A DNA stretch of 64,000 nucleotides from Patescibacteria group bacterium (GCA_018823885.1 JAHJHG010000006.1:10752-74751), one strand, 5' to 3'. Shown: positions 5,934-44,477, counted from the first letter of the stretch. Notes: generated from the letters alone by a model not told the origin. Made by a program: numbers and translations.

Positions 5934-6389
5934 ATGGTTGGTGTTGTTACATTTTGGGAAACTTTTATCGGAGTAGATAATCCAATCTACATTGGAGATA
6001 TATGGGCTAACACCATAAGACCACTTGGTGGTACCCATTTATTTTATGTTGACCAGCAAGGAATAGGAACACCGAGCATAGATGCTTCTATCGTTTCTAA
6101 AACCTATTCTACTTTCCAAGAAGTATTGGATGACAACCCCGATGCAACCTATGTGTTTCTTGAGGCTGAAAGGAGTATTCCAAAAGGTACCGATTTTACT
6201 TACTTAAAAGACTTTGTTCATCCCAAAGAAGACGTCATTTATGTTTTCGGCAAAGATAGTTCTGATGTGTTCACAGAGAACCTGCCACTTGAAGGAAATC
6301 ATGTTGTATCAATTACCACAAATGATAATCTTGTGCTCTGGTCATTAATAACAGTCGGTATCGTTCTGTATGATAGAAAGGTTAAATAA
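5934..6389 (+). CDS. Hypothetical protein, first gene of the beta-helix cluster; the start is uncertain
   Basis: The ORF runs 5670..6389, but its first 180 nt overlap the convergent 747-aa gene. The first in-frame ATG outside that overlap is at 5934 (151 aa). Its stop, TAA, overlaps the ATG of the next gene (taATGg), which suggests translational coupling. Confidence 0.35.
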   Translation: MVGVVTFWETFIGVDNPIYIGDIWANTIRPLGGTHLFYVDQQGIGTPSIDASIVSKTYSTFQEVLDDNPDATYVFLEAERSIPKGTDFTYLKDFVHPKEDVIYVFGKDSSDVFTENLPLEGNHVVSITTNDNLVLWSLITVGIVLYDRKVK

Positions 6390-8500
6390 TGGCATTTTCA
6401 ATTACATCAGATATGACCACTATTGATACTTGTTCTGATACCACAAACTGGTCAGGAACTATTACTCCTACGCAAGACACTGAGGTGTTTATTGAGGGCG
6501 CCGCCTCAGTCGGAATGGTAAAAGTATCACAGGGGAAATTTATTGAAAAATTTGATTATTATACTGAAAAAGCAAGCAATTATTATAATGCTTCTACTAA
6601 TCCTACTCATTTATATTTTTGGGTAAATGTCTCCAACGGCGGTGGACTTTATCCGCTGTCTAGTGGAACAGAATCTACAGAAGGCGGAGTTAGACTATAT
6701 ATGGAAGACAGCGCTGGTGCTTATGTTGAGTGGTACGTTGCAGGTTCAGACACTTACTCTGGTGGTTGGAGATGTTTCGTAGCCTACACCGATGCCGCGC
6801 CCAATAACTCATCTGGTTCAATTAACAAATCACAAATTCGATATTTTGGTGTAACTCTAAATATGCAAGCTAAAACCACAGCTAACGTGAGAAATGCTTG
6901 GATAGATTTTATCAGATATGGTTCAGGTCTCATTTGTAGTGGAACCGACACGGGCCAAATGACTTGGGATGATATTTATGCCGGTGATCTTGCGGGTCCA
7001 CATGGGGTTATTAGAAAAGAAGGTGGAATTTTCTTCGTACAAGGATCGGTCACCATAGGCGACAATATTGGAACAAGTGCAACAGATTTCAGTGATGCTA
7101 ACCAAGTTCTCGTATTTGAAGACGCAAACGTTTCAAGTACTTTATATAACATTACAATCGTCGGCAATGCCACAGGAGATACTGATTTTCAAATGGGAAC
7201 CAAATCGGGTACGGCAGGAATTTCAGGATGCATTATCAGGTCGGCTGGTATAAATAAATATGATTTCACTTGTACCGATACTGCAGTCGAAGAGCTGTTG
7301 TTATACGGGTGTACTTTTTATGATGCGGACGTTATTTCTCTCCCGGCCTATTCCGCCTCGGCTCCACTTAGAGAAGTATTAAACTGCAACTTTGAGGCGT
7401 GTAATCAGGTTGATCCTGATACTTGTACAGTAACTAATTGTAATTTCATTAACGCTGATGACAGAGGGTGTTTGATAGATACTTCATCTCACCATATTAC
7501 CGATTCAAATTTTATTGCCTGTCCAGACGCAGTACATATTAATACTGCTGATACTTATACTTTTTCTGGTCTTATCTTCACCAACAACACCTATGACGTA
7601 GAAAACTCATCTGCCGGTGTCGTAAATATTAACGTATCCGGAACTGGAGCGGCTTCCTCAGCTGAAAATACTGGTGGGGGCTCTACAAACTTTATTTCGT
7701 CCGTTGATGTAGATGCCAAAGTACTAAACGATGCAGGCTCAAATATAGAAAATGCGCAAGTGTATATTCAAAAATCCGATACTGGAAAACAATGGAATTA
7801 TGTTTCTCATTCTGGAAATGCATTAAACGACACTGACTTTGTGGTTACTGGAGCAATTGACGATGATTTGCCCTCATCAGGGTGGATACACGTTTGGGAC
7901 AAATCAGATAATTCCAAGCAGAATTATAGATATACCGGATGGGCAACGGCAACAGATACAACTTTTACACTAAAAACTAATGTAACAGGAAGTGCAACAA
8001 GTGAAGATGGAACAAGCCCAGAAATAAAATTAATTTCTACATCGTCTGATTTTATAGCAATGAAAACGGCTGGGACTATTGAAGAAGGAGACTCAATTTA
8101 TAATTCAACTGATTTAAGCTGGGCTATTGTAGACGAAATAGTAGATGCAGACAATGTAACTACAACTCCACTACAAGGTGGTTCGGACAATAAATGGCAA
8201 GCCAGTGATGGATTCAGTCTACATAAATTAGTAAAGGCTTATACTCTCACCGATGATAAAATAGACATTCCCCTATTCAACGGACAGACTGATTCAAACG
8301 GAGAAATATCAACCTCATATAACTATGGAGAAATTGGAAATCCTCCTGGTCAGTCTGGTTATACTTCCCTGCCCATTTGGATCAGAATTAGATCAAACCA
8401 AGGTACACCTAAATATATTCCATACAACACGAGCGGAACCATAACAGGAAGTGGATACGATTTAACGGCGGTTATCACAGAAGACGATGTAGCAACATAA
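6389..8500 (+). CDS. Right-handed parallel beta-helix repeat protein (pectate-lyase / tailspike-like fold)
   Basis: The 703-aa ORF has repeated short beta-helix rungs rich in N, C, T, I and V (NITIVGNATGD; CIIRSAGIN; NCNFEACNQVD; VTNCNFINADDRGCLIDTSSHHITDSNFIACPDAVHIN). There is no N-terminal signal peptide. Confidence 0.6.
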   Translation: MAFSITSDMTTIDTCSDTTNWSGTITPTQDTEVFIEGAASVGMVKVSQGKFIEKFDYYTEKASNYYNASTNPTHLYFWVNVSNGGGLYPLSSGTESTEGGVRLYMEDSAGAYVEWYVAGSDTYSGGWRCFVAYTDAAPNNSSGSINKSQIRYFGVTLNMQAKTTANVRNAWIDFIRYGSGLICSGTDTGQMTWDDIYAGDLAGPHGVIRKEGGIFFVQGSVTIGDNIGTSATDFSDANQVLVFEDANVSSTLYNITIVGNATGDTDFQMGTKSGTAGISGCIIRSAGINKYDFTCTDTAVEELLLYGCTFYDADVISLPAYSASAPLREVLNCNFEACNQVDPDTCTVTNCNFINADDRGCLIDTSSHHITDSNFIACPDAVHINTADTYTFSGLIFTNNTYDVENSSAGVVNINVSGTGAASSAENTGGGSTNFISSVDVDAKVLNDAGSNIENAQVYIQKSDTGKQWNYVSHSGNALNDTDFVVTGAIDDDLPSSGWIHVWDKSDNSKQNYRYTGWATATDTTFTLKTNVTGSATSEDGTSPEIKLISTSSDFIAMKTAGTIEEGDSIYNSTDLSWAIVDEIVDADNVTTTPLQGGSDNKWQASDGFSLHKLVKAYTLTDDKIDIPLFNGQTDSNGEISTSYNYGEIGNPPGQSGYTSLPIWIRIRSNQGTPKYIPYNTSGTITGSGYDLTAVITEDDVAT

Positions 8501-9127: not shown

Positions 9128-12076
9128 ATGGCAATACAAAACGATTTTACAGTCTACCCTACATCAAAAGTAATTAGGCATACTTCTGGAACAACCGTTT
9201 ACTCAGCGGTTGCTTTCTACTCCTGGTTAATGAACACTTTTGACGAGCCAGGATACTTGACCTATGAAACCCCGATAAGGTTCAACACACCAACTTCGTT
9301 CACGATGATTAATGGCTGGTTTCTAGACGATGGGGATGGCAATCCCGCTGACACGGAAGATGGCCACATTCTTAAATATATAACTGGTGGTGGTATTGAT
9401 ACCTCCGGTTATGCCACAGTTTCTGATCCTATCTATATGGCAGACCTGGCTACTTCTACAGTCGATTTTGTCTACACAGATAAAGACCTACAAGTAACGT
9501 CTGGAGCAGCCGTGGGCCCACTACTGGCCTATAAAAATGATTACCCCACTTCCGCCCGCATTCGTATTTGGGTCAGAGATACTGAATCACACGGAGCACT
9601 CGCCACATCAACTGTCACAGAGGTCACCACTGCGGGAGGTTCGGGAACGGGTACTACTGATGGCACCACAGCATCTGTAAGCGGTGATGAGATTTACCAC
9701 AATCTGTTTACCATTGCGTCCTTTCCAACTGACGTTTATCCCCAGGTATATGTCTATCAACGACACCCTGTAACAACACAAAGTTATAACACCAGAGTCC
9801 GCATAGCGGAGTGGTCTGGTTTTACCAACTGGGACAGAGGTTCGGATGGAATTGATGTCCTCATTCCAGTCAAGCTAGGTGGTACAGCTGTTGACGGTGG
9901 CAACCTTACAGCTTTCGTCCGCGAAACTGGCGACACCTACACTTTTGTTAAGTCTACACTGACATCATCAGGTAGAACCCCTATCGCTACTGAAACTTCC
10001 GCTGACGAGGTAAATATTACTGAAGGTGAACACTATTTGCTTTACGACGGTTCTGATACTGGCTCATTTTCCGCTGATGATGTCATTACCGACAGCGATG
10101 TTTCAACGGGTGTCCCCCCCTCCTGGTACGCCGAGGTAGTTGAGGTAGATGAATTTACTGCCACTGCCACCGGTTTGCTCACAATTCGGTCTTTGCACGG
10201 AACCATTTCAGACAATGACGATATTTATGTCACCGCTTATTCTGCTGGTGCACCGGTGAGCGTACTTGAGGGTACAGTTAATGGTACTGTGGGCGACACA
10301 CTTGTGACACACACTGGAGCTGGTACTGAACCGGTTATAGGAGACATTGATTTACCTTTTGAAGGGGGTACTAGTGGAGCACACCGAGTCTTGAGAGGGT
10401 ATGATAATGCTGAAAACAAGCTTGTTATGCAGGTATATCATACATTTGGCACTCTCGACTCTCAGGTTTATACCGGATCGGGCAGAGATGCTCTTTACAT
10501 AGATTTTTCATTAACTGAAGTAGTAGACGCTCCAGCCAGTGGTACTGGTCTCATGAGTGTAACCACATCAGCAGTTAGCACTACTTTAATCTCTGGATTT
10601 TCTGATGTCACAGTGGCTCATATGAACGGTACTGTAACAGTCAGTGGTATTGCCAACGGCCCACTTATTCTTGGAGATAGATTCACGTACAACACAGGGG
10701 CCCAATCTGGGATCTTAATTTATGCCGATAGCCTAACTGCCCCCACATCTCTCATGCTCGGGAATATTGATCCTGACAATGAACCAGATGCGTCAGACCA
10801 ATTTGCTTTCCAGCTCGCCGGATCTGGTGCATGTACTGTCGACTGTGACTCTGTTTTGACTGATAATAATTCACAAAATTTTGAATTTACTCTTCAATCG
10901 ACTGGGGCGCTTTACACTATTTTTATTGAAGGAGGATCCATTTACAACGCTGGTCGAAGTCTTGCCGATATCTATGCATATTTGCAATACTACGTTCGAG
11001 ACGGCCAGAATATATCCGAGAGAACTATCTATACCAGCGATGGCACTGCCATTACAAAATTAGCGGCCGAAGAATATATCAAGGCAGTCGATGTAACTGC
11101 TTATTCTGCAACCAAACCAGCACCGTTCGGAACCTTAGCTGGAACCACTTTCTTCGGTGCCCAAGGTGTGTGGCTGCAGGGCATGACAAGCACTGACAAC
11201 AACAACATAAAATTCATTGATGCTGGTACAAGCCCCACTTGGGTAGGAACTCTCCGAGAGCCTGATCCATCTATAAACTTAACGATAAGTAACACTAGGG
11301 TTGGCGATAGAATAGCAGTCTACCTAGAAAGTGGCTCTACTACTTTGCCTGACAAAGCTCAATACACGAGCCATGCCACACTTAATGCTCAAAGTGACTC
11401 AACTTTTGATAGAAATGCCTCTGATGGTGCATTCCCCATCGACACACCAACTTTTGGAACTTTTATCGCAGTTGCCACTGATGAAAGCGAGGAGCACAGA
11501 TATAGATATACTTCTTATAACGCAACTGGTGGTGGTGGTTCCGATGGACAATTAGTGTTACCGACTGAAAGGACGGGAACGGCGACAGCTGGTTCTACTG
11601 GACAAACTTTGGTAGCTTCGGCTGCAACGTTTGTTAGCTGGGTCGACCAGAATGGATTAACAACCCAAATTGGAGATATTATCAGAAGAACCAATAATGA
11701 GGGTGGGTGGGCGTATATCACCAGCATCGATTCAGAAACACAAGTTACGACAACACTATTTAACGCTGGCATCACTCAGGGTTGGGATGATACTGCAACA
11801 GCTGATACATTTGAGATGCTCTCTTTAGTGCAATTATATGATGACAGCGATACTTTCTTTATCCCTTATATGGACTTTAGAGAATCCGCTGGAACGGATG
11901 GTTCCCCGGGTTCAGAAACAGTAACAGTATTGTATTATGCAAATCGAGAAGTAGTAATTGAGGTTCGCAACGTCGAAGCTTCCACTCAGATTATTCCTTT
12001 CAAAACCACCGGAACTATTTCTTCAACAGGTTTGACTCAGTCTGTAATTAGAAACGAAGATACTGTTTACACTTAA
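9128..12076 (+). CDS. Large Thr/Gly/Ser/Asp-rich hypothetical structural protein (fibre/adhesin-like), no signal peptide
   Basis: The 982-aa ORF has a composition typical of beta-sandwich fibre or adhesin proteins. It shares its strand with the beta-helix genes, and no catalytic motifs were recognised. Confidence 0.55.
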   Translation: MAIQNDFTVYPTSKVIRHTSGTTVYSAVAFYSWLMNTFDEPGYLTYETPIRFNTPTSFTMINGWFLDDGDGNPADTEDGHILKYITGGGIDTSGYATVSDPIYMADLATSTVDFVYTDKDLQVTSGAAVGPLLAYKNDYPTSARIRIWVRDTESHGALATSTVTEVTTAGGSGTGTTDGTTASVSGDEIYHNLFTIASFPTDVYPQVYVYQRHPVTTQSYNTRVRIAEWSGFTNWDRGSDGIDVLIPVKLGGTAVDGGNLTAFVRETGDTYTFVKSTLTSSGRTPIATETSADEVNITEGEHYLLYDGSDTGSFSADDVITDSDVSTGVPPSWYAEVVEVDEFTATATGLLTIRSLHGTISDNDDIYVTAYSAGAPVSVLEGTVNGTVGDTLVTHTGAGTEPVIGDIDLPFEGGTSGAHRVLRGYDNAENKLVMQVYHTFGTLDSQVYTGSGRDALYIDFSLTEVVDAPASGTGLMSVTTSAVSTTLISGFSDVTVAHMNGTVTVSGIANGPLILGDRFTYNTGAQSGILIYADSLTAPTSLMLGNIDPDNEPDASDQFAFQLAGSGACTVDCDSVLTDNNSQNFEFTLQSTGALYTIFIEGGSIYNAGRSLADIYAYLQYYVRDGQNISERTIYTSDGTAITKLAAEEYIKAVDVTAYSATKPAPFGTLAGTTFFGAQGVWLQGMTSTDNNNIKFIDAGTSPTWVGTLREPDPSINLTISNTRVGDRIAVYLESGSTTLPDKAQYTSHATLNAQSDSTFDRNASDGAFPIDTPTFGTFIAVATDESEEHRYRYTSYNATGGGGSDGQLVLPTERTGTATAGSTGQTLVASAATFVSWVDQNGLTTQIGDIIRRTNNEGGWAYITSIDSETQVTTTLFNAGITQGWDDTATADTFEMLSLVQLYDDSDTFFIPYMDFRESAGTDGSPGSETVTVLYYANREVVIEVRNVEASTQIIPFKTTGTISSTGLTQSVIRNEDTVYT

Positions 12077-12657: not shown

Positions 12658-13977
12658 ATGGCAATAAGAGTAAATCCTTACGTTAGCCCTAGAATTATAG
12701 AGGTTCAAGCACCCCTTACAGAAATCTCTATTCAAGACTTAACTGACCAAATAAAAGACTGGGAAGACGAACCAGCCGATCTTGCCTTTCCTATTTTGAT
12801 TAGAACGTACGGAAAACAACCTCTTGGTGGCGGATCTTTCGTGGGAATAACAGCTGTATTACAAAACGCAAAAATTTCTTTTGAAGCTAGGGACGGATTA
12901 GATACTCCACCCGAGGTTTTATGTACTATCTCCGGAGGAAATTTAGTTGCCGTTGACGATGTTGGTGCCTCAATGAACCCTATTCACCCAACTGCTTATA
13001 CTCAAGTTGTTATTGCCCAGTCAACCTCTCCTTCTATTATTACTCCACCCGAAGACCTTAACATGCTTTACCTTATTGAATCTCTAAGAGGTACTGGTAA
13101 ATCTTTGGGGAGTATTTTCTACTGGGATCCGGAAGGTGGAAGCGATACAAACGATGGGAGCCAACCTAGTGAAGCTGTTCAAACCTTTGCCGCAGCACAG
13201 GCATTGACGACAGCCGGAGCGGGAGATATTATTTTTGCTCTCTCAACCCACTCAAGTGGAATCACAACTACCTCTGAAAAACTAAGCATTACTACCGCGG
13301 GCCTGAAAGTAAGAGGCCCTGGCTACAGACTTCAATTGATTCCATCGGCCACCGGTTCCCCTACCGTCAATATCTCAGCCAACTCTGCTGAATTTGAGGG
13401 TTTTTATATCGAAACGAAGAGTGGAGGAACAGACAACGGAATCACAGCGACTGGAAATAATGTGGTGATTAAAGACTGTTGGGTAAATTCTGCCACTGGT
13501 AATGGAATTGATATTTCCTCGACCAGTAGAACTGAAATTAATACTTGCGTGATTGAAGAGAGTGTTGGTTACGGAATCAATGTGGGGGCAACAACAAGTC
13601 TCTCAACAATTCGAAAATGTATCATCTCTGGCAACTCCGAAGGAGTATATATTGCGGGGGCCAGCATTACGGACAACATATTGGAAAACAATATAATTTA
13701 CAACAACACGACCAGCGGAATTGAAATTGGCAACGGAGTGGTCAGAACCGGGATTCGATTGCATCATACTTTTGCCGCCAATAACCCCAATATCACTGAC
13801 GATGGAACAGGGACTTATCAAGACACATCAGGGACAATCGAGCAAGGGGATATCGACAACATTGTTAGTGGGGTTTGGGATGAAGTAATTTCAGCTACAG
13901 CTCATGCGGGTGCCGGAAGTGCCGGAAAGACATTGAGGGACGCGAAAACGAAAGCCACCCTTGCTTCCCTTAAGTAA
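12658..13977 (+). CDS. Right-handed parallel beta-helix repeat protein (second tailspike-like paralog)
   Basis: The 439-aa ORF has consecutive beta-helix rungs (NGITATGNNVVIKDCWVNSATGNGIDISSTSRTEINTCVIEESVGYGINVGATTS...CIISGNSEGVYIAGASITDNILENNIIYNNTTSGIEIGNG). There is no signal peptide. Confidence 0.65.
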   Translation: MAIRVNPYVSPRIIEVQAPLTEISIQDLTDQIKDWEDEPADLAFPILIRTYGKQPLGGGSFVGITAVLQNAKISFEARDGLDTPPEVLCTISGGNLVAVDDVGASMNPIHPTAYTQVVIAQSTSPSIITPPEDLNMLYLIESLRGTGKSLGSIFYWDPEGGSDTNDGSQPSEAVQTFAAAQALTTAGAGDIIFALSTHSSGITTTSEKLSITTAGLKVRGPGYRLQLIPSATGSPTVNISANSAEFEGFYIETKSGGTDNGITATGNNVVIKDCWVNSATGNGIDISSTSRTEINTCVIEESVGYGINVGATTSLSTIRKCIISGNSEGVYIAGASITDNILENNIIYNNTTSGIEIGNGVVRTGIRLHHTFAANNPNITDDGTGTYQDTSGTIEQGDIDNIVSGVWDEVISATAHAGAGSAGKTLRDAKTKATLASLK

Positions 13978-14512
13978 TATGAGCTATCTCTAACTCGTAG
14001 GCCATTTTTTCTCCTATAAATTTAATCTTTGCGAGCTCTACCTCATTCAACTCTTCATTGGCTCCACCAATTCCAATTCTTACTTTCCAGAAATCTTTGC
14101 TGTTTAATTTCTTCTCCATTTTCAAAATTGCTTCCGGGGCAGAACCTAAATTTTTACTTATATCAAACTGGCCAAAAGTAAGGTTTTCGTCAGGATAAAT
14201 AATATAAAAGTCTTCGGGAATCACTCTGTAAAACGCGTAGAGACCAAAGGCAACATCATCAAACTTGTCTGTAGGGGTCCTAGGCTTAACCACCATCGTC
14301 AAAGGATTCAGATTGGTAGTCATGAGCATATATTTTGATCTCATCGCCCAGCCGCTTACCATGGCGTTAGGATATAGCTTTCTCACTTTTTCCACGGCAT
14401 AATCAATAATCATATAACCCACATTGCTTCGGGCTTTTGCATACCGTATTCCGGGGTTCCCGTAAGCAATAATCAGTCTTACTTTTTCCTCTATATTCTT
14501 TTCCTCTGTCAT
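13970..14512 (-). CDS. Divergent peptidyl-tRNA hydrolase (Pth)-like paralog with the catalytic His position substituted
   Basis: The 180-aa ORF aligns by eye to the canonical Pth in this same window: N-terminus LIIAYGNPGIRYAKARSNVGYMIIDY against [26 protein letters not shown], and C-terminal motif DFWKVRIGIGG against DFWRVRIGVDN. The His of the conserved R-H-N motif reads Ser here (ARSN). Confidence 0.6.
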   Translation of the reverse strand: MTEEKNIEEKVRLIIAYGNPGIRYAKARSNVGYMIIDYAVEKVRKLYPNAMVSGWAMRSKYMLMTTNLNPLTMVVKPRTPTDKFDDVAFGLYAFYRVIPEDFYIIYPDENLTFGQFDISKNLGSAPEAILKMEKKLNSKDFWKVRIGIGGANEELNEVELAKIKFIGEKMAYELEIAHIT

Positions 14513-14599
14513 CTCTTTTAAGTCCCCATTCTTTCAAAATATGATAGCATTTTTTCCCCTCTTGCTTTTGGAAAATATTTCTTTTACCATCTTACTAGA

Positions 14600-14791
14600 A
14601 TGCCAGCCTTCTTAAAAAACATCGGAGCAGTCGAGCTCATCATCATTGCCCTCATTCTTGTTCTTCTTTTCGGAGGTAAAAAGTTTAAGGAATTAGCTCG
14701 TGGACTTGGAGAGTCAAAACACGAAGCGAAAAAACTTAAAGAAGAAATTATAGGCAAGGGCAAGAAGGATTCTGAAGAAGACGCTTCTTGA
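14600..14791 (+). CDS. tatA: Twin-arginine translocase subunit TatA/E family (copy 1, subtype a)
   Basis: The 63-aa product has a single N-terminal TM helix (GAVELIIIALILVLLFGGKKF) followed by an amphipathic basic helix. This is the classic TatA architecture. Confidence 0.8.
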   Translation: MPAFLKNIGAVELIIIALILVLLFGGKKFKELARGLGESKHEAKKLKEEIIGKGKKDSEEDAS

Positions 14792-14841
14792 CTAGTTGCC
14801 ACAAACAAGTAAGAATTAATAAGTAAGGGAGGTGGTAGATA

Positions 14842-14985
14842 GTGATCAAGAATCTAGGAACAACTGAACTAATAATTATCGCTTTAATCTTAATACTTCT
14901 ATTTGGTGGCAAAAAGATACCTGAGTTTATAAAGGGTGTCGGAGAGGCTGTTAAAGAATTCCGAAAGGCGTCTAAAGAAGACTAA
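14842..14985 (+). CDS. tatA: TatA family protein (copy 2, subtype b), GTG start
   Basis: The 47-aa product reads VIKNLGTTELIIIALILILLFGGKKIPEFIKGVGEAVKEFRKASKED. An AAGGGAGG RBS lies 10 nt upstream. An in-frame stop lies immediately upstream of the GTG, so no ATG start is possible. The product is too short for the ORF track. Confidence 0.65.
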   Translation: MIKNLGTTELIIIALILILLFGGKKIPEFIKGVGEAVKEFRKASKED

Positions 14986-14991
14986 TTTTCT

Positions 14992-15198
14992 ATGCTAAAA
15001 AACTTAGGAACGGTTGAATTTGTGGTTATCGGAGTAATCGCAGTTCTTTTGTTTGGAAGCAAAAGAATAACAGATGTGGCCAAAGGCCTGGGCAAGTCAA
15101 CAAAGGAATTCAAAAAAGCACAAAGTGAATACGAAAAAACAGTTAACAAAGATGTCTCCGAAGAAGAGTCGGAAGACAAAGATAAGGAGGTGACATAG
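14992..15198 (+). CDS. tatA: TatA family protein (copy 3, subtype a)
   Basis: The 68-aa product begins MLKNLGTVEFVVIGVIAVLLFGSKRITDVAKGLGKSTKEFKK. Confidence 0.8.
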   Translation: MLKNLGTVEFVVIGVIAVLLFGSKRITDVAKGLGKSTKEFKKAQSEYEKTVNKDVSEEESEDKDKEVT

Positions 15199-15351
15199 AT
15201 GTTTGGAAAACTTGGAGCATTAGAATTAATTATTATCGCTTTTGTCTTAATCCTACTTTTCGGTGGCAAAAAGATCCCTGAATTAGTTCGCGGAATCGGT
15301 GAGGCCGTTCGTGAATTTAAAAAGGGTGCCAAAGAAGAAAAAAAAGATTAA
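15199..15351 (+). CDS. tatA: TatA family protein (copy 4, subtype b)
   Basis: The 50-aa product reads MFGKLGALELIIIAFVLILLFGGKKIPELVRGIGEAVREFKKGAKEEKKD. A GGAGGTG RBS sits 6 nt upstream. The sequence was found by manual translation. Confidence 0.75.
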   Translation: MFGKLGALELIIIAFVLILLFGGKKIPELVRGIGEAVREFKKGAKEEKKD

Positions 15352-15412
15352 ATTACTCCTCTTGCACATATCCCCCTGTTTAACTTATCATTAGACAAAT
15401 TAGCTTTTATCT

Positions 15413-15577
15413 ATGTTAAATAACGTTGGACCGGCTGAAATGATAATCATTGGTATTGTGGCTCTTTTCCTTTTCGGAAACAAGAAACTGTCCGAATTGG
15501 CTCGAGGCCTCGGGGAGTCAACTAAAGAATTTAAAAAGATTAAAAAAGACATTGGAAAAGAAATTGATACAGACTAA
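15413..15577 (+). CDS. tatA: TatA family protein (copy 5, subtype a)
   Basis: The 54-aa product reads MLNNVGPAEMIIIGIVALFLFGNKKLSELARGLGESTKEFKKIKKDIGKEIDTD. It was found by manual translation. Confidence 0.75.
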   Translation: MLNNVGPAEMIIIGIVALFLFGNKKLSELARGLGESTKEFKKIKKDIGKEIDTD

Positions 15578-15609
15578 TAAATATTTAAGACCGGAAGGGG
15601 GTGTTATAA

Positions 15610-15762
15610 ATGCCTAGTCGATTTGGAGCATTAGAAATTGCCATTATCGCTTTGATTCTTATATTGCTTTTTGGTGGTAAAAAGATCCCTGAATTAATAA
15701 AGGGGGTCGGAAAAGGAATCCGAGAGTATCGCAAAGCGTCAAAAGAAGAGAAAAAGGAATAA
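15610..15762 (+). CDS. tatA: TatA family protein (copy 6, subtype b)
   Basis: The 50-aa product reads MPSRFGALEIAIIALILILLFGGKKIPELIKGVGKGIREYRKASKEEKKE. A GGAAGGGGG RBS lies upstream, and the stop abuts the tatC ATG. Confidence 0.75.
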   Translation: MPSRFGALEIAIIALILILLFGGKKIPELIKGVGKGIREYRKASKEEKKE

Positions 15763-16506
15763 ATGGACGATATATATAATCGCTTCTTCCCGTACCTTAT
15801 GGAGGTTCGAAAAAGGCTGTTTTTTATAGCCTCTATTTTTCTTATTTCATCCGCCCTGGGTTTCATCTATTACGAGAAGATAATCACCACCAGCCTGGGT
15901 ATTTTTAATCTTGAGGGAATAAATATTGTTTTTACCTCTCCTTTTCAATTTTTAGAACTTTCAATTAATTCCGGCCTCCTGGTCGGTTTGATTGCTGTTT
16001 TCCCTCTGATAATAGTTCAGGTCCTGTCATTCTTAAAACCCGCCTTAAAGAAAAGCGAATTTAAGCTGGTTATTTCTCTCTTGCCCTTAAGTATCTTTCT
16101 TTTTATCTTCGGATTTACCTACGGCATCTTTATCATGAGATATGTCTTGGTTATCTTCTATGAGAAGTCCTTAGCGCTTTCCATTGGCAACTTCTTAGAT
16201 GTTAGCAAGTTCCTCTCTCAGATTCTGCTTACCTCGGCTCTAATGGGCCTAGCCTTCCAATTTCCTGTTATCTTGACAGTCCTAATGCGCCTAAGAGTAA
16301 TAACGTATAGCGCCCTTTCAAAACAAAGAATGATCGCTTACTCCTCCTCAATTATCTTTGCCGCCTTTTTGCCACCTACCGACCTGCTCTCTCTTGCCCT
16401 TTTAACAGTCCCTCTTGTAATACTTTTCGAAACTACGCTATTATTAAACAAGGTGGTATTCAAAGCCCCCCTTAAACCAAAAAAGGAGGTGAAACGTAAT
16501 GTTTAA
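15763..16506 (+). CDS. tatC: Twin-arginine translocase subunit TatC
   Basis: The 247-aa product has 6 predicted TM helices. It shows TatC-like conserved stretches (FLKPAL, PPTDLLS), and its ATG sits 1 nt after the stop of the sixth tatA. Confidence 0.85.
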   Translation: MDDIYNRFFPYLMEVRKRLFFIASIFLISSALGFIYYEKIITTSLGIFNLEGINIVFTSPFQFLELSINSGLLVGLIAVFPLIIVQVLSFLKPALKKSEFKLVISLLPLSIFLFIFGFTYGIFIMRYVLVIFYEKSLALSIGNFLDVSKFLSQILLTSALMGLAFQFPVILTVLMRLRVITYSALSKQRMIAYSSSIIFAAFLPPTDLLSLALLTVPLVILFETTLLLNKVVFKAPLKPKKEVKRNV

Positions 16507-16657
16507 AACAATTGGATCAACAGAACTACTAATAATTGCCATAATATTACTTATTCTTTTTGGAGGAAGAAAGCTTCCAGAGCTTGGAAAAGGAATGGGA
16601 GAATCTGTAAAGGAATTTAGAAAATCTTTAAAGAAAGAACCTAAAACCAAAAAGTAA
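16499..16657 (+). CDS. tatA: TatA family protein (copy 7)
   Basis: The 52-aa product reads MFKTIGSTELLIIAIILLILFGGRKLPELGKGMGESVKEFRKSLKKEPKTKK. It overlaps the tatC stop by 8 nt, and an AAAGGAGGTG RBS lies inside the tatC 3' end. Confidence 0.75.
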   Translation: MFKTIGSTELLIIAIILLILFGGRKLPELGKGMGESVKEFRKSLKKEPKTKK

Positions 16658-16662
16658 TTCCT

Positions 16663-17046
16663 TTGCTAACCCCTCTACTCGCCTTAATAGCACCATTCAT
16701 TGTTTGGCCTATTGAGTTAATATTGCCATATCCTCACATCATTGAGGAGTTGGCAAAAGCGGTTCTTGTTTTTACCCTACTGGATCTTCCGGATCGTTTA
16801 ACGAAAATCAAACTTACGATCTTAATCGGAGTACTTTTTGCATTCTCCGAATCAGTCCTCTATCTTTTCAATATTCAAATGGTCGGCATTATGCGGACAT
16901 ATTTTGTCAGACTTCTTGTCACCATTCCACTTCATGTCATCACAACATTAATCATTTTATTACCGGCCCTGAAAAATAAGAAATTAATTATTGTCGGAGT
17001 TTTATTTGCTTCCCTAATCCACTACCTCTTCAATTTATACATCTAA
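16663..17046 (+). CDS. Small integral membrane protein (about 4 TM helices)
   Basis: The 127-aa ORF is hydrophobic throughout and lies directly downstream of the tat array. Confidence 0.4.
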   Translation: MLTPLLALIAPFIVWPIELILPYPHIIEELAKAVLVFTLLDLPDRLTKIKLTILIGVLFAFSESVLYLFNIQMVGIMRTYFVRLLVTIPLHVITTLIILLPALKNKKLIIVGVLFASLIHYLFNLYI

Positions 17047-17107
17047 TAACAGTAAACAAGAGATACATTGATAAATAGTTGGCTATACTATTATATATAT
17101 TGATATA

Positions 17108-17608
17108 TTATAGTTGCCAAGATAAGAAGGCAGTGCTCAAATCTTCATCTGAAAAATCCTGAATGATATTTGCTTTCTTCTTTTTATAAAAATTTAGAGC
17201 GGCCGGACTTCTATCACTAACATATGCATAGATTTCTCTAATCCCCTTATCTTTTGTAAAAGCTAATACTTTTTCAAATAATTTATTGCTGTACCCCTCT
17301 CCTCTAAGTTCTGGTTTGACATACATGTACATCAACTCAAACGGATCTGGGTCCATCTGAAAATCATTCTTAACCCATCCTTCTTCTTTAAAGGTCTGTC
17401 CCCACACTTTCATTTTGGCTGGTGAGTGACCAATAACCACAAAGCCAATTCTTTCTCCTTTTTTGTTTTCTTGAAAAATAACATATACCTTGGAGTTTCT
17501 TTCCTCGTCGCTTAAATCAAATTCCTTATTTATTCTTTTAACAAAATGTGAATAGGCTTTATCATCGCCAACAATATCAGCGATCTCCCGTATCTCGTCT
17601 CTGCTCAT
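17108..17608 (-). CDS. GNAT family N-acetyltransferase
   Basis: The 166-aa ORF has an acetyl-CoA-binding motif A-like segment (RGEGYSNKLFEKVLAFTKDKG) and GNAT-like topology. Confidence 0.65.
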   Translation of the reverse strand: MSRDEIREIADIVGDDKAYSHFVKRINKEFDLSDEERNSKVYVIFQENKKGERIGFVVIGHSPAKMKVWGQTFKEEGWVKNDFQMDPDPFELMYMYVKPELRGEGYSNKLFEKVLAFTKDKGIREIYAYVSDRSPAALNFYKKKKANIIQDFSDEDLSTAFLSWQL

Positions 17609-17665
17609 AAAACTATTATGAAACAGGAAAGAATAATTAGAAAGTATTAATTGAAGTCTTACTTA

Positions 17666-20443
17666 TTAATACTCAAGAGAAGAATACTCTTTTGAAACCC
17701 AGCCTAATGTTCCATCATTCAGCTCTATCTGGTACCAATCAGCTTTTTCGTCTATGAGAGCAAAAGATTCACCCGGTTCAACTTTGGCAATCTCTATTCC
17801 GCCGGGGGCCTTTCTCACTCTTAACCAGCCTGTAGGAGTATCTTCAATCATCACCGTGCCTCCAATGGGGTCAGTTAGGCTTTCAAACTCTTCCTCTCCT
17901 AACGAATCTTCTTCAAAAGGTACCCCTTCTACAACAAATTCTAAATAAACCCAGCCTTCTGTGTAATCGCCCTCTTTCTCGTTCACAAAGGCAATGTTCG
18001 CCCAATCTCCTTCCTCCCCTATCCTAACCACTTCTTGAGTTACCTTAAGGCGCATGATCACCGCAGAAGTTAATGACGGCTCTTCTCTGATGTTGACCGA
18101 AGAACCGACCGGTACTTCTACCATCACAATATCCTCTCCCCCAGTCGCATCTTCTTCAAGCTCTTCTTCCTCAAGGTCAATTACTTCAGCTTCCTCCTGC
18201 TCACCCAAAACAAACTCCGATTCGTCTATGGTTTCGGCCACTTGCTGAGAAACAATTTTGGCGGTGATCACCTTGCTGGTAATAAAAGCGGTCAGGGCGG
18301 CAATCCCGGCACCAAACAGAATGAATAAAACAGCCAGTCTAATGGCAACCTGCTTTCTAATACGTCTTCTGGCTTCACCATTTGTCTTCTTTGTCTTTGT
18401 TTTCATCTTCATGGGTTGTGTCTTCTTCTTATTGCTCTTGGCCATCTCCTTGTCTCTAAGAGTCTTCATGTAGACTGCCAGGAAAATAAATCCGCCGGCA
18501 ACGATAACAATCATTCCCCAAACGGCCAGTGTTTGGGTACTGCCGACAAAACCAAAGAGGGTGCCGATAGAACCTGCTTCAGTGACCAATTCTTGAAGTT
18601 TGTCCATCTTGGTGTTGACAGCATCAAGTTCGATTTCGGCCTCACGGTAAGCTCTAATCTTTTGTTCGGGAGTAATAGCCGTCTTCTGAAGTTCAATAAT
18701 TTTGTCTAAAGAAACATCAATATCGCTTTTAAGAGTCACTCCTTGAGCGAAGTAGGATGTCTTCTCAAGTGGTCTGGAAAGTTCTTCTGCTTGTTTGCGT
18801 AAACTTTCTACCTGTTCTTCCGTAATTACCCAAATATCGTTTACCTGAATTGATACCGTTTTTGTTTGTCCGGCTCCTAATGTAAACTCACCTTCTACGT
18901 AATATTGATCTTGCTCTGCATCATATTTAACTGTTAAATCATCATCTGTTGAAATAATATCTTCCTCTCTCACTTCGGGAGGCAAATAGTATTTTAACGG
19001 AACAGTTTGGCTAATTAAGCTGGAAGGGTTTGTTATTAATGACTTAAAAACAATGCTTCCCAATTCAAGCCAGGTGCTGGCAATGGTTGAGCCCGCCTTT
19101 TTGGCCAAAAATGTTTCGTTTGCTTGAATTAATCCCTTTAAGCTCAATAATTTGTTCTTGAGGATCTTTTCGTCCGAAGTATCTTTGTAAGTCGAAGCGC
19201 CTAAAACTTTTTCTATCCTCGGCAATCTGTTGATGGCAATTATCTTGTTGTATAAGGTATTGATTTTAGAAACTCGATCATTGGCTCTTGTTGAATTCCA
19301 TTTTGCCAATACATTATCAATATCACCTTTTCGAGTTTCAAAAATATCAGCTAAGTCTCTAACCTCTTTTATCTTCCCGAACAATGTCCTTTGGTTTGAA
19401 GAATCTGCAGCATCCCCAACCAATGTCTCAAGTCTATCGATATTACCTACCAGGCCTTTTATTTCATTGTAGGCAAAATTGGTTTTACCATAAGAACCAA
19501 GCCTGTATTGAGTGGCTGAAAGAACATTGCCAATGGCGATTGCCTGATTATAAACATCCTCGGTTGCTTTCCACCCCCAAGCTTCCTTTAGCCAATTTAT
19601 TTGTCCAAAAATGGTGTCTTTGTTGTCTGAATCCCCCTCATCTCCCAACATTGCCGAAAGCTCCATGACATTCGAAAGAAGCTCTCTTTCGCTTAGTTTT
19701 GACCACTTCGTAACCAATAAGCTTGCCTTACTTCTCAAATATTGATTGTTTACATAGAGTGTGTTGGCAACTGATTTTGTTTGCTCAAGCTTCTCCCCCA
19801 AATCAGGGGTTTCTTCTTCTTCAATGAAATTTTGAATGATTGGTTCGTTAACCAGCCGCTCAAGCAAAAGCCTGTTTTCATTAATTGTTGCTTCCATACT
19901 GGAAATATCTATTGCATCTTCGTCCCCTGCATTAAGACTGGTCAAGGATCGTGAGGCGTTTGACCATATATTAGAAATCAAATCACCAAAATTGGAAAGA
20001 GTTCTGCCTGAATATCCCCACACAGCCGATGAAATATCTCCGGTGGAGGGAGTAGTTGACGACGCTTTAACTTCGTAACTCTTGTCTAAACACAAATAAT
20101 CACCACTGGCCGTACAACAAACTTGAGCTCGATAAAGACCGGTAGTGGTTGGGGCTGTAAAAGTATGATAATACCAACCATCTGTAGCCTTGGACATTAC
20201 CTCTCCATTAAGATGAAGAGATCCATCGGGATAACGGCTAGTAATAGTACAATCAGCCGTAGTAATAGGAACATAAGAGTCATCATAAAGAAACTCTCCT
20301 ACTGTGCAACTACTGCTTACTGTGCAATCTTGAGGACTTCCTGCTGAGGCCAAAGTATTCCGGGGGAAAACAAGGGCCCCAGCAAGAGCAGAAACAGCAA
20401 TTGCCACAAACACTTGTTTTTGAACAGTTTGGGCAGTTACCAT
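17666..20443 (-). CDS. Large secreted/membrane-anchored protein: signal peptide, long alpha-helical ectodomain, 2 TM helices with a polybasic loop, acidic linker, two C-terminal bacterial SH3 (SH3b) domains
   Basis: The 925-aa ORF begins with a signal peptide (MVTAQTVQKQVFVAIAVSALAGALVFPRNTLASA). It has TM segments flanking KSNKKKTQPMKMKTKTKKTNGEARRRIRK, and an EEEELEED acidic stretch. The two C-terminal segments of about 60 aa carry GW...Y/W signatures typical of SH3_3. Confidence 0.55.
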   Translation of the reverse strand: MVTAQTVQKQVFVAIAVSALAGALVFPRNTLASAGSPQDCTVSSSCTVGEFLYDDSYVPITTADCTITSRYPDGSLHLNGEVMSKATDGWYYHTFTAPTTTGLYRAQVCCTASGDYLCLDKSYEVKASSTTPSTGDISSAVWGYSGRTLSNFGDLISNIWSNASRSLTSLNAGDEDAIDISSMEATINENRLLLERLVNEPIIQNFIEEEETPDLGEKLEQTKSVANTLYVNNQYLRSKASLLVTKWSKLSERELLSNVMELSAMLGDEGDSDNKDTIFGQINWLKEAWGWKATEDVYNQAIAIGNVLSATQYRLGSYGKTNFAYNEIKGLVGNIDRLETLVGDAADSSNQRTLFGKIKEVRDLADIFETRKGDIDNVLAKWNSTRANDRVSKINTLYNKIIAINRLPRIEKVLGASTYKDTSDEKILKNKLLSLKGLIQANETFLAKKAGSTIASTWLELGSIVFKSLITNPSSLISQTVPLKYYLPPEVREEDIISTDDDLTVKYDAEQDQYYVEGEFTLGAGQTKTVSIQVNDIWVITEEQVESLRKQAEELSRPLEKTSYFAQGVTLKSDIDVSLDKIIELQKTAITPEQKIRAYREAEIELDAVNTKMDKLQELVTEAGSIGTLFGFVGSTQTLAVWGMIVIVAGGFIFLAVYMKTLRDKEMAKSNKKKTQPMKMKTKTKKTNGEARRRIRKQVAIRLAVLFILFGAGIAALTAFITSKVITAKIVSQQVAETIDESEFVLGEQEEAEVIDLEEEELEEDATGGEDIVMVEVPVGSSVNIREEPSLTSAVIMRLKVTQEVVRIGEEGDWANIAFVNEKEGDYTEGWVYLEFVVEGVPFEEDSLGEEEFESLTDPIGGTVMIEDTPTGWLRVRKAPGGIEIAKVEPGESFALIDEKADWYQIELNDGTLGWVSKEYSSLEY

Positions 20444-20450
20444 ATTTTAC

Positions 20451-20597
20451 CTACACCTTCTCTTTCGCTACTCGCCGGAGTTCAGAGACAGACTCTCCTA
20501 CTCCCTTGGCAAGTTCTGGCAGCTTCTTGCCGCCAAAGAGAACAAAAAGCATCACAGCTATTACGCCTAGCTCTGTTGCTCCTATGTTATTTAACAT
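20451..20597 (-). CDS. tatA: TatA family protein (copy 8), immediately upstream of the 925-aa gene
   Basis: Manual translation of the minus strand gives MLNNIGATELGVIAVMLFVLFGGKKLPELAKGVGESVSELRRVAKEKV (48 aa). A GGGAGGTG RBS lies upstream, and the stop is 5 nt from the next ATG. The antisense ORF 20401..20664 shows the characteristic mirror sequence (SGSFLPPKR). Confidence 0.7.
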   Translation of the reverse strand: MLNNIGATELGVIAVMLFVLFGGKKLPELAKGVGESVSELRRVAKEKV

Positions 20598-20827
20598 GCA
20601 GTCAATCACCTCCCTTCTAATAAGTTGGCTGGGTTTCCAACAGGTAAAACCAAAGTGTATTTAGTTGGGCAGGATTTTCCGTGAAAACCCAGCTGTCTCC
20701 AGTATTGACTGTTATTTGATATATTGTCAAGGGGCATTTTCTATCCAATTTTTCTTATCATAATCTTATCATATTTTGTTATTCTAGCCTCAAATTTAGG
20801 AAATTATTCCAAGATTGACTCTGTGAT

Positions 20828-33209: not shown

Positions 33210-33289
33210 ATTTTTATGGTTAATAGATTTTCTCTATTAACCACATATGTTAATGTTTTTTGTTCTCTGAAAACTGAAGGGAATGGGTC

Positions 33290-36511
<3,222 letters not shown>

Positions 36512-42910: not shown

Positions 42911-44372
42911 GAAAGGAGGTGATCCATCCGCTCCTTCCAGAACGGATACCTTGTTACGACTTAATTCTTGTCGCTGGTCTCACCTTCCCCCGATTCAATC
43001 GAGGTTCGGGTGCTTCCAACTTCACTAACTTGACGGGCGGTGTGTACAAGACCTGAGAACGTATTCACCGCGGCTTGGCTGATCCGCGATTACTACCAAT
43101 TCCACGTTCATGAGGGCGAATTGCAGCCCTCAATCCCCACTGAGAAGCCGTTTGATGGGATTAGCTCCGTGTTACCACTTGGCAACCCATTGTCGGCTCC
43201 ATTGTAGCATGTGTGTAGCCCTGGACATAAGGGCCATGCTGACTTAACGTCGTCCCCGCCTTCCTCCCGAGAATGACTCGGGCAGTCCCGTATGAATATT
43301 CAACATACGGCGAGGGTTGCGCTCGTTACCCCACTGAAGGGAACACCTCACGACACGAGCTGACGATAGCCATGCAGCACCTGTTCTAGTACCTTCGAAA
43401 GAGTCACCATTTCTGGTGATGTGCAACTAGTATGTCAAGTCCAGGTAAGGTTCTTCGGTTCGTCTCGAATTAAACCACATGCTCCACTGGTTGTGCAGGT
43501 CCCCGTCAATTCCTTTGAGTTTTAGTCTTGCGACCGTACTCCCCAGGCGGCTCGCTTAACGCGTTAGCTTGCGAGACGGAAAAATAAATTCCCCATCCCT
43601 AGCGAGCATCGTTTACGGCTAGGACTACAGCGGTCTCTAATCGCTTTCGCTACCCTAGCTTTCGTTCCTCAGCGTCAAGAAATGCCTAGTTACCCGCCTT
43701 CGCCCTTGGTGTTCTTGTCGATATCAACGGATTTCACCCCTACACCGACAATTCCAGTAACCCCGACATTCTTCAATTCTGGTAGTATTATGCCCCTTCC
43801 CGAGGTTAAGCCCCGGTCTTTGAAACATAACTTACCAAAAAGCCTACGAACTCTTTACGCCCAATAAATCCGGACAACGCTTGCACCCTACGTATTACCG
43901 CAGCTGCTGGCACGTAGTTAGCGGGTGCTTATTCTCCAGTCGGTCTCCCTTCTGGCAAAAGAGGTTTACAACCCTAAGGCCTTCATCCCTCACGCGGCGT
44001 CGCGGCGTCAGACTTTCGTCCATTGCGCACGATTCCCGGTTGCTGCCACCCGTAGGTGTAAGGCCCGTGTCTCAGTGCCTTTCTGGGGGAACACGCTCTC
44101 ACGCCCCCTACCCGTCGTAGCCTTGGTAGGCTATTACCCTACCAACAAGCTGATGGGCCGCAGGCTCCTCCCTCGGCGGGCAGTTACGCCCTTTCATCCT
44201 TGGATCTTATGCGGTATTAACTACTCTTTCGAGTAGGTATTCCACACCAAGGGGTAGATTCCTACGTGTTACTCAGCCGTTCGCGACTTACTATCCGAAG
44301 ATAGCTCGTTCCACTTGCATGCCTAAGGCACGCCGCCAGCGTTCGTCCTGGGCCAGGATCAAACCCTCAAAT
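42911..44372 (-). rRNA. 16S ribosomal RNA
   Basis: The 3' end reads ...GGATCACCTCCTTTC (complement at 42911-42924) and the 5' end reads GAGGGTTTGATCCTGGCCCAGGACGAACGCTGGCGGCGTGCC. The internal conserved blocks (GTGCCAGCAGCTGCGGTAATAC, etc.) are present. Confidence 0.9.
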
Positions 44373-44477
44373 AGTGACGAGTTTTGAACCTAAACATGCA
44401 TAAGCACGAATAAGTATTCGTCTTACGCTTCCAGTCATATTTTGATTGTCAAAGTGCGCACATTTTTGAGACTAAAA

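Follow-up and report, generated by a model that had tools for sequence, protein, structure and literature searches.

What do eight proteins of the TatA family do beside a single TatC? This question is raised by a stretch of 64,000 nucleotides (nt) from a Patescibacteria group bacterium (GCA_018823885.1 JAHJHG010000006.1:10752-74751; the window), in which seven tatA genes are packed around one tatC gene at 14600-16657 and an eighth lies nearby. The machinery of twin-arginine translocation (Tat) to which these genes belong is the sole general export route for folded proteins. The current work shows that the eight tatA genes fall into four classes conserved in related genomes. Contrasting translation signals set these classes apart and hint at a division of labour, so far undescribed, in a well-known machine. 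What is new here is the architecture and the regulatory pattern, not the gene families.

Eight tatA genes and one tatC

An earlier reading made from the DNA alone (the sequence-only reading) had described six tatA genes in a row, then tatC, then a seventh tatA over the tatC stop, and its coordinates were reproduced. The eighth copy, which it placed at 20451-20597, was found there on the minus strand. Its count of proteins under 60 amino acids (aa) among the seven, given as four, is in fact five. The genes are listed below with their bit scores against PF02416 (TatA_B_E, mttA/Hcf106) and TIGR01411 (tatA/E) for the small proteins, and PF00902 for TatC.

14600..14791, plus strand: A1, tatA of class a (subtype a1), 63 aa; PF02416 32.9; TIGR01411 37.0, below cutoff
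14842..14985, plus strand: A2, tatA of class b (subtype b1), 47 aa, GTG start; PF02416 50.1; TIGR01411 57.8, above cutoff
14992..15198, plus strand: A3, tatA of class a, 68 aa, acidic tail; PF02416 53.8; TIGR01411 57.8
15199..15351, plus strand: A4, tatA of class b (subtype b2), 50 aa; PF02416 53.8; TIGR01411 62.6
15413..15577, plus strand: A5, tatA of class a (subtype a2), 54 aa; PF02416 52.8; TIGR01411 55.5
15610..15762, plus strand: A6, tatA of class b, 50 aa; PF02416 52.5; TIGR01411 55.6
15763..16506, plus strand: tatC, 247 aa, weak Shine-Dalgarno (SD) site; PF00902 126.6, E 1.5e-36
16499..16657, plus strand: A7, tatA of class c (downstream type), 52 aa; PF02416 54.7; TIGR01411 56.5
20451..20597, minus strand: A8, tatA of class d (distal type), 48 aa from the ATG at 20597; PF02416 43.7; TIGR01411 41.1, below cutoff

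The order on the plus strand is a-b-a-b-a-b-tatC-c followed by a prsW-like gene, with the class-d tatA 3.8 kb off on the opposite strand. Intergenic gaps within the co-oriented block of seven tatA genes and tatC range from -8 to 61 nt. At two junctions, A3/A4 and A6/tatC, the stop codon is followed exactly by the next start, and A7 overlaps the end of tatC by 8 nt. For A8, the alternative start chosen by open reading frame (ORF) calling, GTG at 20609, would give 52 aa; the ATG at 20597 is the likelier start because GGGAGGTGA sits 8 nt upstream of it. A hidden Markov model (HMM) search in all six frames of the window added no other tatA or tatC; the counts of one tatC and eight tatA genes apply to these 64 kb only. 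Promoter and terminator consensus matches in 13900-17700 were no more numerous than in shuffled sequence; thus, transcription units cannot be inferred from them.

Authenticity and selection

The array is a real and compact tat locus. The stretch from 14513 to 16700 (2188 bp) recurs with 100% identity in ENA, Logan and JGI assemblies made independently from different samples, and two contigs of a relative whose TatC is 89% identical (L001 and L002) have the matching layout of 6+1(+1) tatA genes. Repeat collapse is of no concern, because the b copies are only 68-73% identical in DNA. At the amino-acid level, the copies of the window share 47-54% identity within class a and 63-70% within class b. 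The ratio of nonsynonymous to synonymous substitution rates (dN/dS, omega) against L001 is 0.02-0.22 per copy (0.017 for A2, 0.06 for A3 and 0.22 for A1), 0.124 for the eight genes concatenated and 0.089 for tatC. With such values, all eight are maintained genes under purifying selection. Short, repetitive genes from a metagenome-assembled genome may arouse the suspicion of an assembly or annotation artefact, whether a collapsed or chimeric repeat or chance small ORFs, and the sequence-only reading had itself named mis-assembly as a risk, but the probability of such an artefact is negligible in view of the three identical assemblies, the diverged relative with the same layout, the divergence of about 30% among copies at the DNA level, the significant HMM E-values and an omega well below 1.

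Family assignment

The sequence-only reading took the small proteins for members of the TatA family, and the profile searches agree. All eight pass PF02416, with 32.9-54.7 bits against a gathering score of 21 (E 4e-8 to 6e-15). Under TIGR01411, whose cutoff is 53.9, A2-A7 pass at 55.5-62.6 bits and A1 and A8 fail; these two also lack the Phe of the EFKK motif, having HEAKK and SELRR, respectively. Common to all eight are an N-terminal transmembrane (TM) helix with an early polar residue, an FG hinge, which reads LFGG, LFGS or LFGN in every copy as had been noticed earlier, and a basic amphipathic helix. In the class alignments described below, Glu and FG are invariant or nearly so, and the Glu of the TM helix is invariant in those of classes a and b.

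TatC matches positions 3-208 of the 208 in PF00902, with a gathering threshold of 25.1 bits, and NCBI names the identical protein TatC (Patescibacteria group bacterium). Its scores lie below the NCBIfam equivalog cutoffs of TIGR00945 (106.9 vs 132.7) and TIGR01912 (118.5 vs 192.6). The machine encoded by this locus is almost certainly a Tat translocase, and its genes are ordinary members of known families.

Whether one member of the a-b pair is a TatB by homology, as the sequence-only reading had raised for b with a as the TatA, can be answered in the negative. None of the eight passes TIGR01410 (tatB, cutoff 56.5); the scores of 20.3-32.0 bits are each lower than the tatA/E score of the same protein. 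Among solved chains, the class-a profile matched Bacillus subtilis TatAd (PDB 2l16) and chloroplast TatA at 46 bits each and the best TatB at 33, and the class-b profile gave 59 bits for TatA and 36 for the best TatB. Chloroplast TatA (PDB 7b7o) was strongly matched by both. Judged by these profiles, neither class a nor class b is TatB, and each scores as TatA. Homology is a weak test for TatB, however: no motif tells it from TatA, the chloroplast pair is split in function although nearly identical in sequence, and TatB function arose more than once (PMC5201420).

Four classes of TatA in Microgenomates

The host belongs to Microgenomates (candidate phyla radiation, Patescibacteria), a placement that follows from the names of its TatC relatives, such as Woesebacteria, Roizmanbacteria, Levybacteria and Blackburnbacteria. 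Its genome is probably small, about 1 Mb; complete relatives have 0.9-1.1 Mb. A scan of a genome collection with the single TatC as query found no relatives; a TatC alignment, run against one genome per species, recovered 79 loci. Where sensibly named, these belong to Roizman-, Woese-, Gottesman-, Davies-, Levy-, Ames- and Shapirobacteria and WWE3. The linkage of tatA and tatC is kept across all 79 loci.

A tat locus of the Microgenomates type is also present in dozens of public metagenome-assembled genomes that bear the title "uncultured Gammaproteobacteria" or "Pseudomonadales", among them L010-L015 and L022-L025; their TatC is 50-62% identical to that of the window. These titles are probably wrong.

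The commonest layout is a long tatA, a short tatA and tatC. One large clade has two more tatA genes, the first directly 3' of tatC and the second a further 3-4 kb away on the opposite strand. Counted as upstream, downstream and distal tatA genes, the layout is (2,0,0) in 32 loci, (2,1,1) in 15 and (4,1,1) in 6. Only the window and L001 have (6,1,1); L002 has (6,1,0), and its contig stops before the distal gene. Exactly one a-b pair stands upstream of tatC in 58 of about 80 Microgenomates loci.

Class profiles were built from loci with at most two upstream tatA genes, leaving out the window and its close relatives, and labelled by position: first upstream, a (U1); second upstream, b (U2); downstream, c (D1); distal, d (D2). 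With these profiles, drawn from other genomes only, the a/b alternation of the sequence-only reading was recovered. A1, A3 and A5 were assigned to class a (75.0, 72.7 and 71.6 bits), A2, A4 and A6 to class b (93.5, 82.0 and 79.8 bits), A7 to class c (88.7 bits) and A8 to class d (83.1 bits). The margins of assignment were 3.8-17.3 bits, smallest for A7 and largest for A1, which scored at most 58.3 bits with any other class; the next score for A3 was 65.0. Other loci with several pairs were also assigned in alternating a/b order.

Each class has its own signature. Class a (median 66 aa) reads FG.KK..ELAR..GE..KE.KK, has no Pro after the Lys-Lys and no conserved Phe, bears an acidic tail and evolves fast. 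Class b (about 50 aa) reads FGGKKIPEF.KG.GEAVKEFKKA. Class c (about 50 aa), FGGKKLPELG.G.GE.I.EFKK, is translationally coupled to tatC. Class d (about 48 aa), FGGKKLPELA.G..DSIKEFRKA, is most similar to class c.

The three tandem pairs described from the sequence alone thus consist of a unit that is conserved among relatives, in which a series from ab to abab (L003, L004, L023 and L026) to ababab can be seen. In the neighbour-joining tree of TatC, the window, L001 and L002 are sister to L003; the remaining abab loci are scattered inside the clade with the order ab-C-c-d, and the outgroup has tatC, then one tatA and nothing more. The a-b module is the ancestral one; some lineages have it twice, and that of the window alone has it three times. 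The first duplication of the pair is old; the third pair is lineage-specific. Nearest-neighbour identities suggest that A1 and A2 correspond to the first pair of abab genomes and A4 and A5 to the second, with A6 ambiguous. A1 has its closest matches in the first genes of the four-gene arrays in L023 and L003, and A2 shares 85% identity with gene two of the L003 array. A4 reaches 74% with gene four of the L004 array, and nearest to A5 are the third genes in the four-gene arrays of L026 and L004. A3 is the most diverged, fast-evolving copy, with a best outside match of 55% and no clear orthologue.

In a Daviesbacteria-like clade (L014, L018, L021, L031, L037), class b has been lost and classes a, c and d are kept. 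Class a is unusually long there, at 70-103 aa, reaching 90-103 aa in L018, L021 and L037.

In a Woesebacteria assembly (L005, 5782-6045), an 87-aa GIY-YIG ORF lies between tatC and the class-c tatA; these two genes overlap in the window and are about 320 nt apart in L005. The ORF is possibly an insertion of the homing-endonuclease type.

Shine-Dalgarno asymmetry

A start was counted as having a strong SD site when its predicted duplex with the anti-SD sequence had an energy of -6 kcal/mol or lower; the 16S ribosomal RNA (rRNA) of this genome was verified to carry the canonical anti-SD. The b, c and d genes of the window have the strong sites GGGAGGTGG, AAGGAGGTGA, GGGGGTG, AAGGAGGTGA and GGGAGGTGA, and the three a genes have none. 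A2 (GGGAGGTGG) has a duplex energy of -16.2, A4 (AAGGAGGTGA) of -15.4, A6 (GGAAGGGGGTG) of -17.1 and A7 (AAAAGGAGGTGA) of -16.5; the values of A1, A3 and A5 are +3.6, -2.2 and +0.5.

The same asymmetry appears across non-redundant loci, counted with the best-scoring candidate start of each gene and, for tatC, with both the chosen and the best-scoring start. Strong sites were found in 3-5% of 81-91 class-a genes (5% of 81 with the best start), 96% of which start with ATG, and in 16-20% of 80 tatC genes. The fractions were 76-80% in class b, 90-92% in class c and 74-100% in class d, the higher figure being that of the best start in each. As baselines, long ORFs of the window have 26-44% and random positions 11%. 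This pattern suggests, as far as initiation signals can tell, low and mutually matched output of class a and TatC and high output of classes b, c and d.

Proposed division of labour

By function, TatB is the subunit that forms a stable complex of about 1:1 with TatC, binds the signal peptide and is far scarcer than TatA. TatA and TatB share one TatC site through a polar residue at position 8, and the levels of the two need careful control (PMC13323110). For characterised systems, a TatA:TatB:TatC ratio of about 20-50:1:1 is reported (10.1101/2025.09.29.679310).

We propose tentatively, with a confidence somewhat short of even, that class a accompanies TatC in low copy number, as an analogue of TatB that evolved independently, and that classes b, c and d are bulk TatA. 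All paralogues would dock on TatC via the invariant TM Glu. They would probably compete for the same TatC sites, since all keep the Glu that docks TatA and TatB in solved complexes. Because the SD asymmetry suggests low against high output, class a, made in step with TatC, would be the TatC-stoichiometric receptor partner, and classes b, c and d would supply the plentiful TatA needed for thinning the membrane. That the Daviesbacteria-like clade has lost b and kept a, c and d fits the notion that b, c and d are interchangeable and a is not. The three diverged a/b pairs may form isoform core complexes on one TatC, possibly differing in substrate range. A bolder form of the proposal, which must be called rather unlikely, has a Microgenomates-specific TatB analogue, class a, in three versions with their own b partners; these would make three asymmetric complexes acting as substrate-selective receptors on the single TatC, and the presence or absence of SD sites would hard-wire their ratios. 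The sequence-only reading had suggested that the a-b pair works as a TatA/TatB-like unit, and such a functional split has become more plausible.

Several points weigh against this proposal. Neither class resembles TatB by profile, and b rather than a adjoins tatC, unlike the canonical order tatA-tatB-tatC. Class a is usually the first gene and nearly always starts with ATG. A missing SD site is no proof of low translation, as leaderless or AU-rich initiation could be efficient. The correlation of TatC distance is only slightly higher with class a (r 0.68 vs 0.61 over 56 loci); over 15 loci it is 0.87 for class a against 0.65-0.74, values that are confounded by shared phylogeny and by the variability of class a. 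A regular-expression scan of the 64-kb window gave no credible twin-arginine substrate: the matches are two alternative starts of one ORF and make no credible signal, because the Arg-Arg (RR) lies more than 25 residues into the longer product. Further tatA or tatC genes may also exist elsewhere in the genome.

Alternatives to a division of labour

The strongest alternative, in our view somewhat unlikely, is that all eight proteins are bifunctional TatA isoforms of a Bacillus-type TatAC system sharing one TatC, without a TatB-like split. They would be diversified for substrates, membrane conditions or assembly sizes, like TatAd/TatAy/TatAc or TatA/TatE, and the SD sites would only tune amounts. 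This would agree with the preference of all eight for the tatA/E over the tatB model, with the best matches of both class profiles to solved TatA (including B. subtilis TatAd for class a), and with the Glu, FG hinge and amphipathic helix kept in every copy. Published surveys of the group likewise report only TatA and TatC (PMC9166423). It leaves unexplained, however, why a long and a short TatA form a conserved unit in about 58 loci, why the lack of SD sites is confined to class a and tatC, and why class a has lost an otherwise conserved Pro and Phe. A minimal Bacillus-type TatAC system has one bifunctional TatA type per TatC, and here four TatA classes were found with one tatC.

Dosage amplification, offered by the sequence-only reading as one explanation of the array, would make the extra copies redundant, their sole purpose being a larger supply of TatA. 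In known systems, TatA must greatly outnumber TatC, and the number of a-b pairs does differ among lineages. Yet the copies are deeply diverged (47-70% identity in amino acids, 68-73% in DNA), have orthologues in other genera that correspond by position and are all held by purifying selection, and the amplified unit includes the SD-less class a, a poor choice for raising output. Simple dosage is accordingly improbable.

Neighbouring genes and Tat substrates

Two genes adjoin the tatA genes in a way that is kept in relatives:

16663..17046, plus strand: PrsW-family small membrane protein, 127 aa; PF13367 32.0 bits vs gathering score 23.5
17666..20443, minus strand: surface protein with SH3_3, 925 aa; Sec-type signal peptide, TM hairpin, C-terminal SH3_3 (65.4 bits)

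The PrsW-like gene begins 5 nt past A7 and is the last gene of the putative operon. Its position is the same in L001, L003, L004 and L085, and its product may be a protease linked to the Tat operon.

The SH3_3 gene follows A8, which heads this minus-strand unit, after 7 nt. A class-d gene followed within a few nt by a giant protein of 743-1124 aa was found in 33 of the 34 loci with class d. The giant proteins have a Sec-type signal peptide, the conserved mature N-terminus C..SC.VGEFLYDDSY.PI, a TM hairpin at about residues 640-720 and C-terminal SH3_3 domains. No conserved twin-arginine motif was found in these orthologues. The protein of the window was considered as a dual Sec/Tat substrate because of an RRRIRK before its second TM helix, and rejected: the motif occurs only in the window, L001 and, loosely, L031, and the N-termini are of the Sec type. 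The beta-helix/NosD-like neighbour at 12658-13977 was also rejected as a Tat substrate, as no signal peptide of any kind is visible in its sequence.

The class-d arrangement bears on the further possibility that some paralogues have left Tat transport, with class d serving the giant Sec-exported protein, or with copies acting in membrane stress or holin-like thinning. Non-lytic, holin-like export is reportedly discussed in the literature. Class d does lie apart from tatC with the surface protein right behind it, and A1 and A8 are under the TIGR01411 cutoff. Against this stand the ordinary Sec signal peptide of the giant protein, the lack of conservation of RRRIRK, and class d itself, which keeps the Glu, the FGGKKLPE hinge and mostly EFRKA and is most similar to class c. 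A departure from Tat transport is thus quite unlikely.

In the flanks of related loci, regular-expression matches to the twin-arginine motif were mostly the N-terminus of TatC itself. A candidate Tat substrate, by its signal sequence, is a 403-aa protein in L031 (6663-7874), about 4 kb downstream of tatC, with the textbook twin-arginine signal TRRDFFKVAGAAAAGAF / MPNLDRQPQGLTRRDFFKVAGAAAAGAF. Therefore, canonical Tat targeting exists in the group.

Comparison with known Tat systems

As in Escherichia coli with TatABC and TatE, one TatC is served by several TatA-family paralogues encoded beside tatC, and these have the polar residue in the TM helix, the Gly hinge and the amphipathic helix. Competition of TatA with TatB for one TatC site makes their ratio matter in E. 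coli (PMC13323110); unequal translation signals plausibly set subunit ratios there as they would here. Unlike the three paralogues of E. coli, the eight of the window form four classes with the a-b module in three copies, and none matches the TatB profile. The candidate low-copy class a, first in the operon and about 66 aa long, also differs from the 171-aa TatB of E. coli.

The likeness to TatAdCd, TatAyCy and TatAc of B. subtilis lies in a Gram-positive-like envelope without a recognisable TatB, in several TatA isoforms per genome and in a short TatA with Pro after the hinge (classes b, c and d). TatAd (PDB 2l16) is the best solved match of the class-a profile. In contrast to B. subtilis, where each main TatA has its own TatC, one TatC serves all copies here, at least inside the window. 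Neither the two-class pair structure nor the SD asymmetry is a known feature of Bacillus Tat systems.

The closest parallel to the pair itself is found in chloroplasts, where Tha4 (TatA) and Hcf106 (TatB) are very alike, both with the TM Glu, and are split in role. This split has been taken as a sign that TatB function arose independently by subtle changes (PMC5201420). In chloroplasts it is biochemically demonstrated and each type has one gene; in the window it would be read from sequence, in an amplified array.

Published surveys record no more than the presence of TatA and TatC in Microgenomatia (PMC9166423). In the literature that could be searched, neither the four classes nor the amplification of the a-b module nor the SD asymmetry was found described, and no earlier multi-tatA array either; TATA-box papers swamp "tatA" queries, and with such noisy searches, this negative is weak evidence of novelty.

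Other features of the window

The 982-aa ORF at 9128-12076 (plus strand) and the beta-helix protein that follows it at 12658-13977 occupy the same place upstream of the tat operon in relatives. This ORF and that at 6389-8500 (plus strand, 703 aa) have no Pfam match at E <=0.001.

The 23S rRNA gene (33287-36508, minus strand) contains a group I intron (34307-34536, minus strand) and exceeds the model in span by about 300 nt. About 6.4 kb from it lies the 16S gene (42912-44374, minus strand), and this distance, filled with protein-sized ORFs and the genes of tRNA-Ala and tRNA-Ile, makes the rRNA genes unlinked. A group I intron in 23S and the unlinking of 16S and 23S are typical of the candidate phyla radiation.

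Implications

The receptor and pore division within the TatA family and the control of its ratios are under debate, with core-complex structures of 2025-2026 on one side and a review disputing their model on the other. Microgenomates offer a natural experiment on this matter: a small genome with four TatA classes, up to eight genes, and one TatC. From the SD asymmetry, one would expect class a to be rare and attached to TatC, and classes b, c and d to be plentiful. Another question posed by the array is which folded proteins these fermentative, cofactor-poor cells export. If the copies were merely redundant, the locus would be a curiosity of gene-family expansion. If the proposed division of labour is true, it would mean that a TatB-like subunit originated independently a second or third time, and Microgenomates would provide a compact system in which such origins can be studied.

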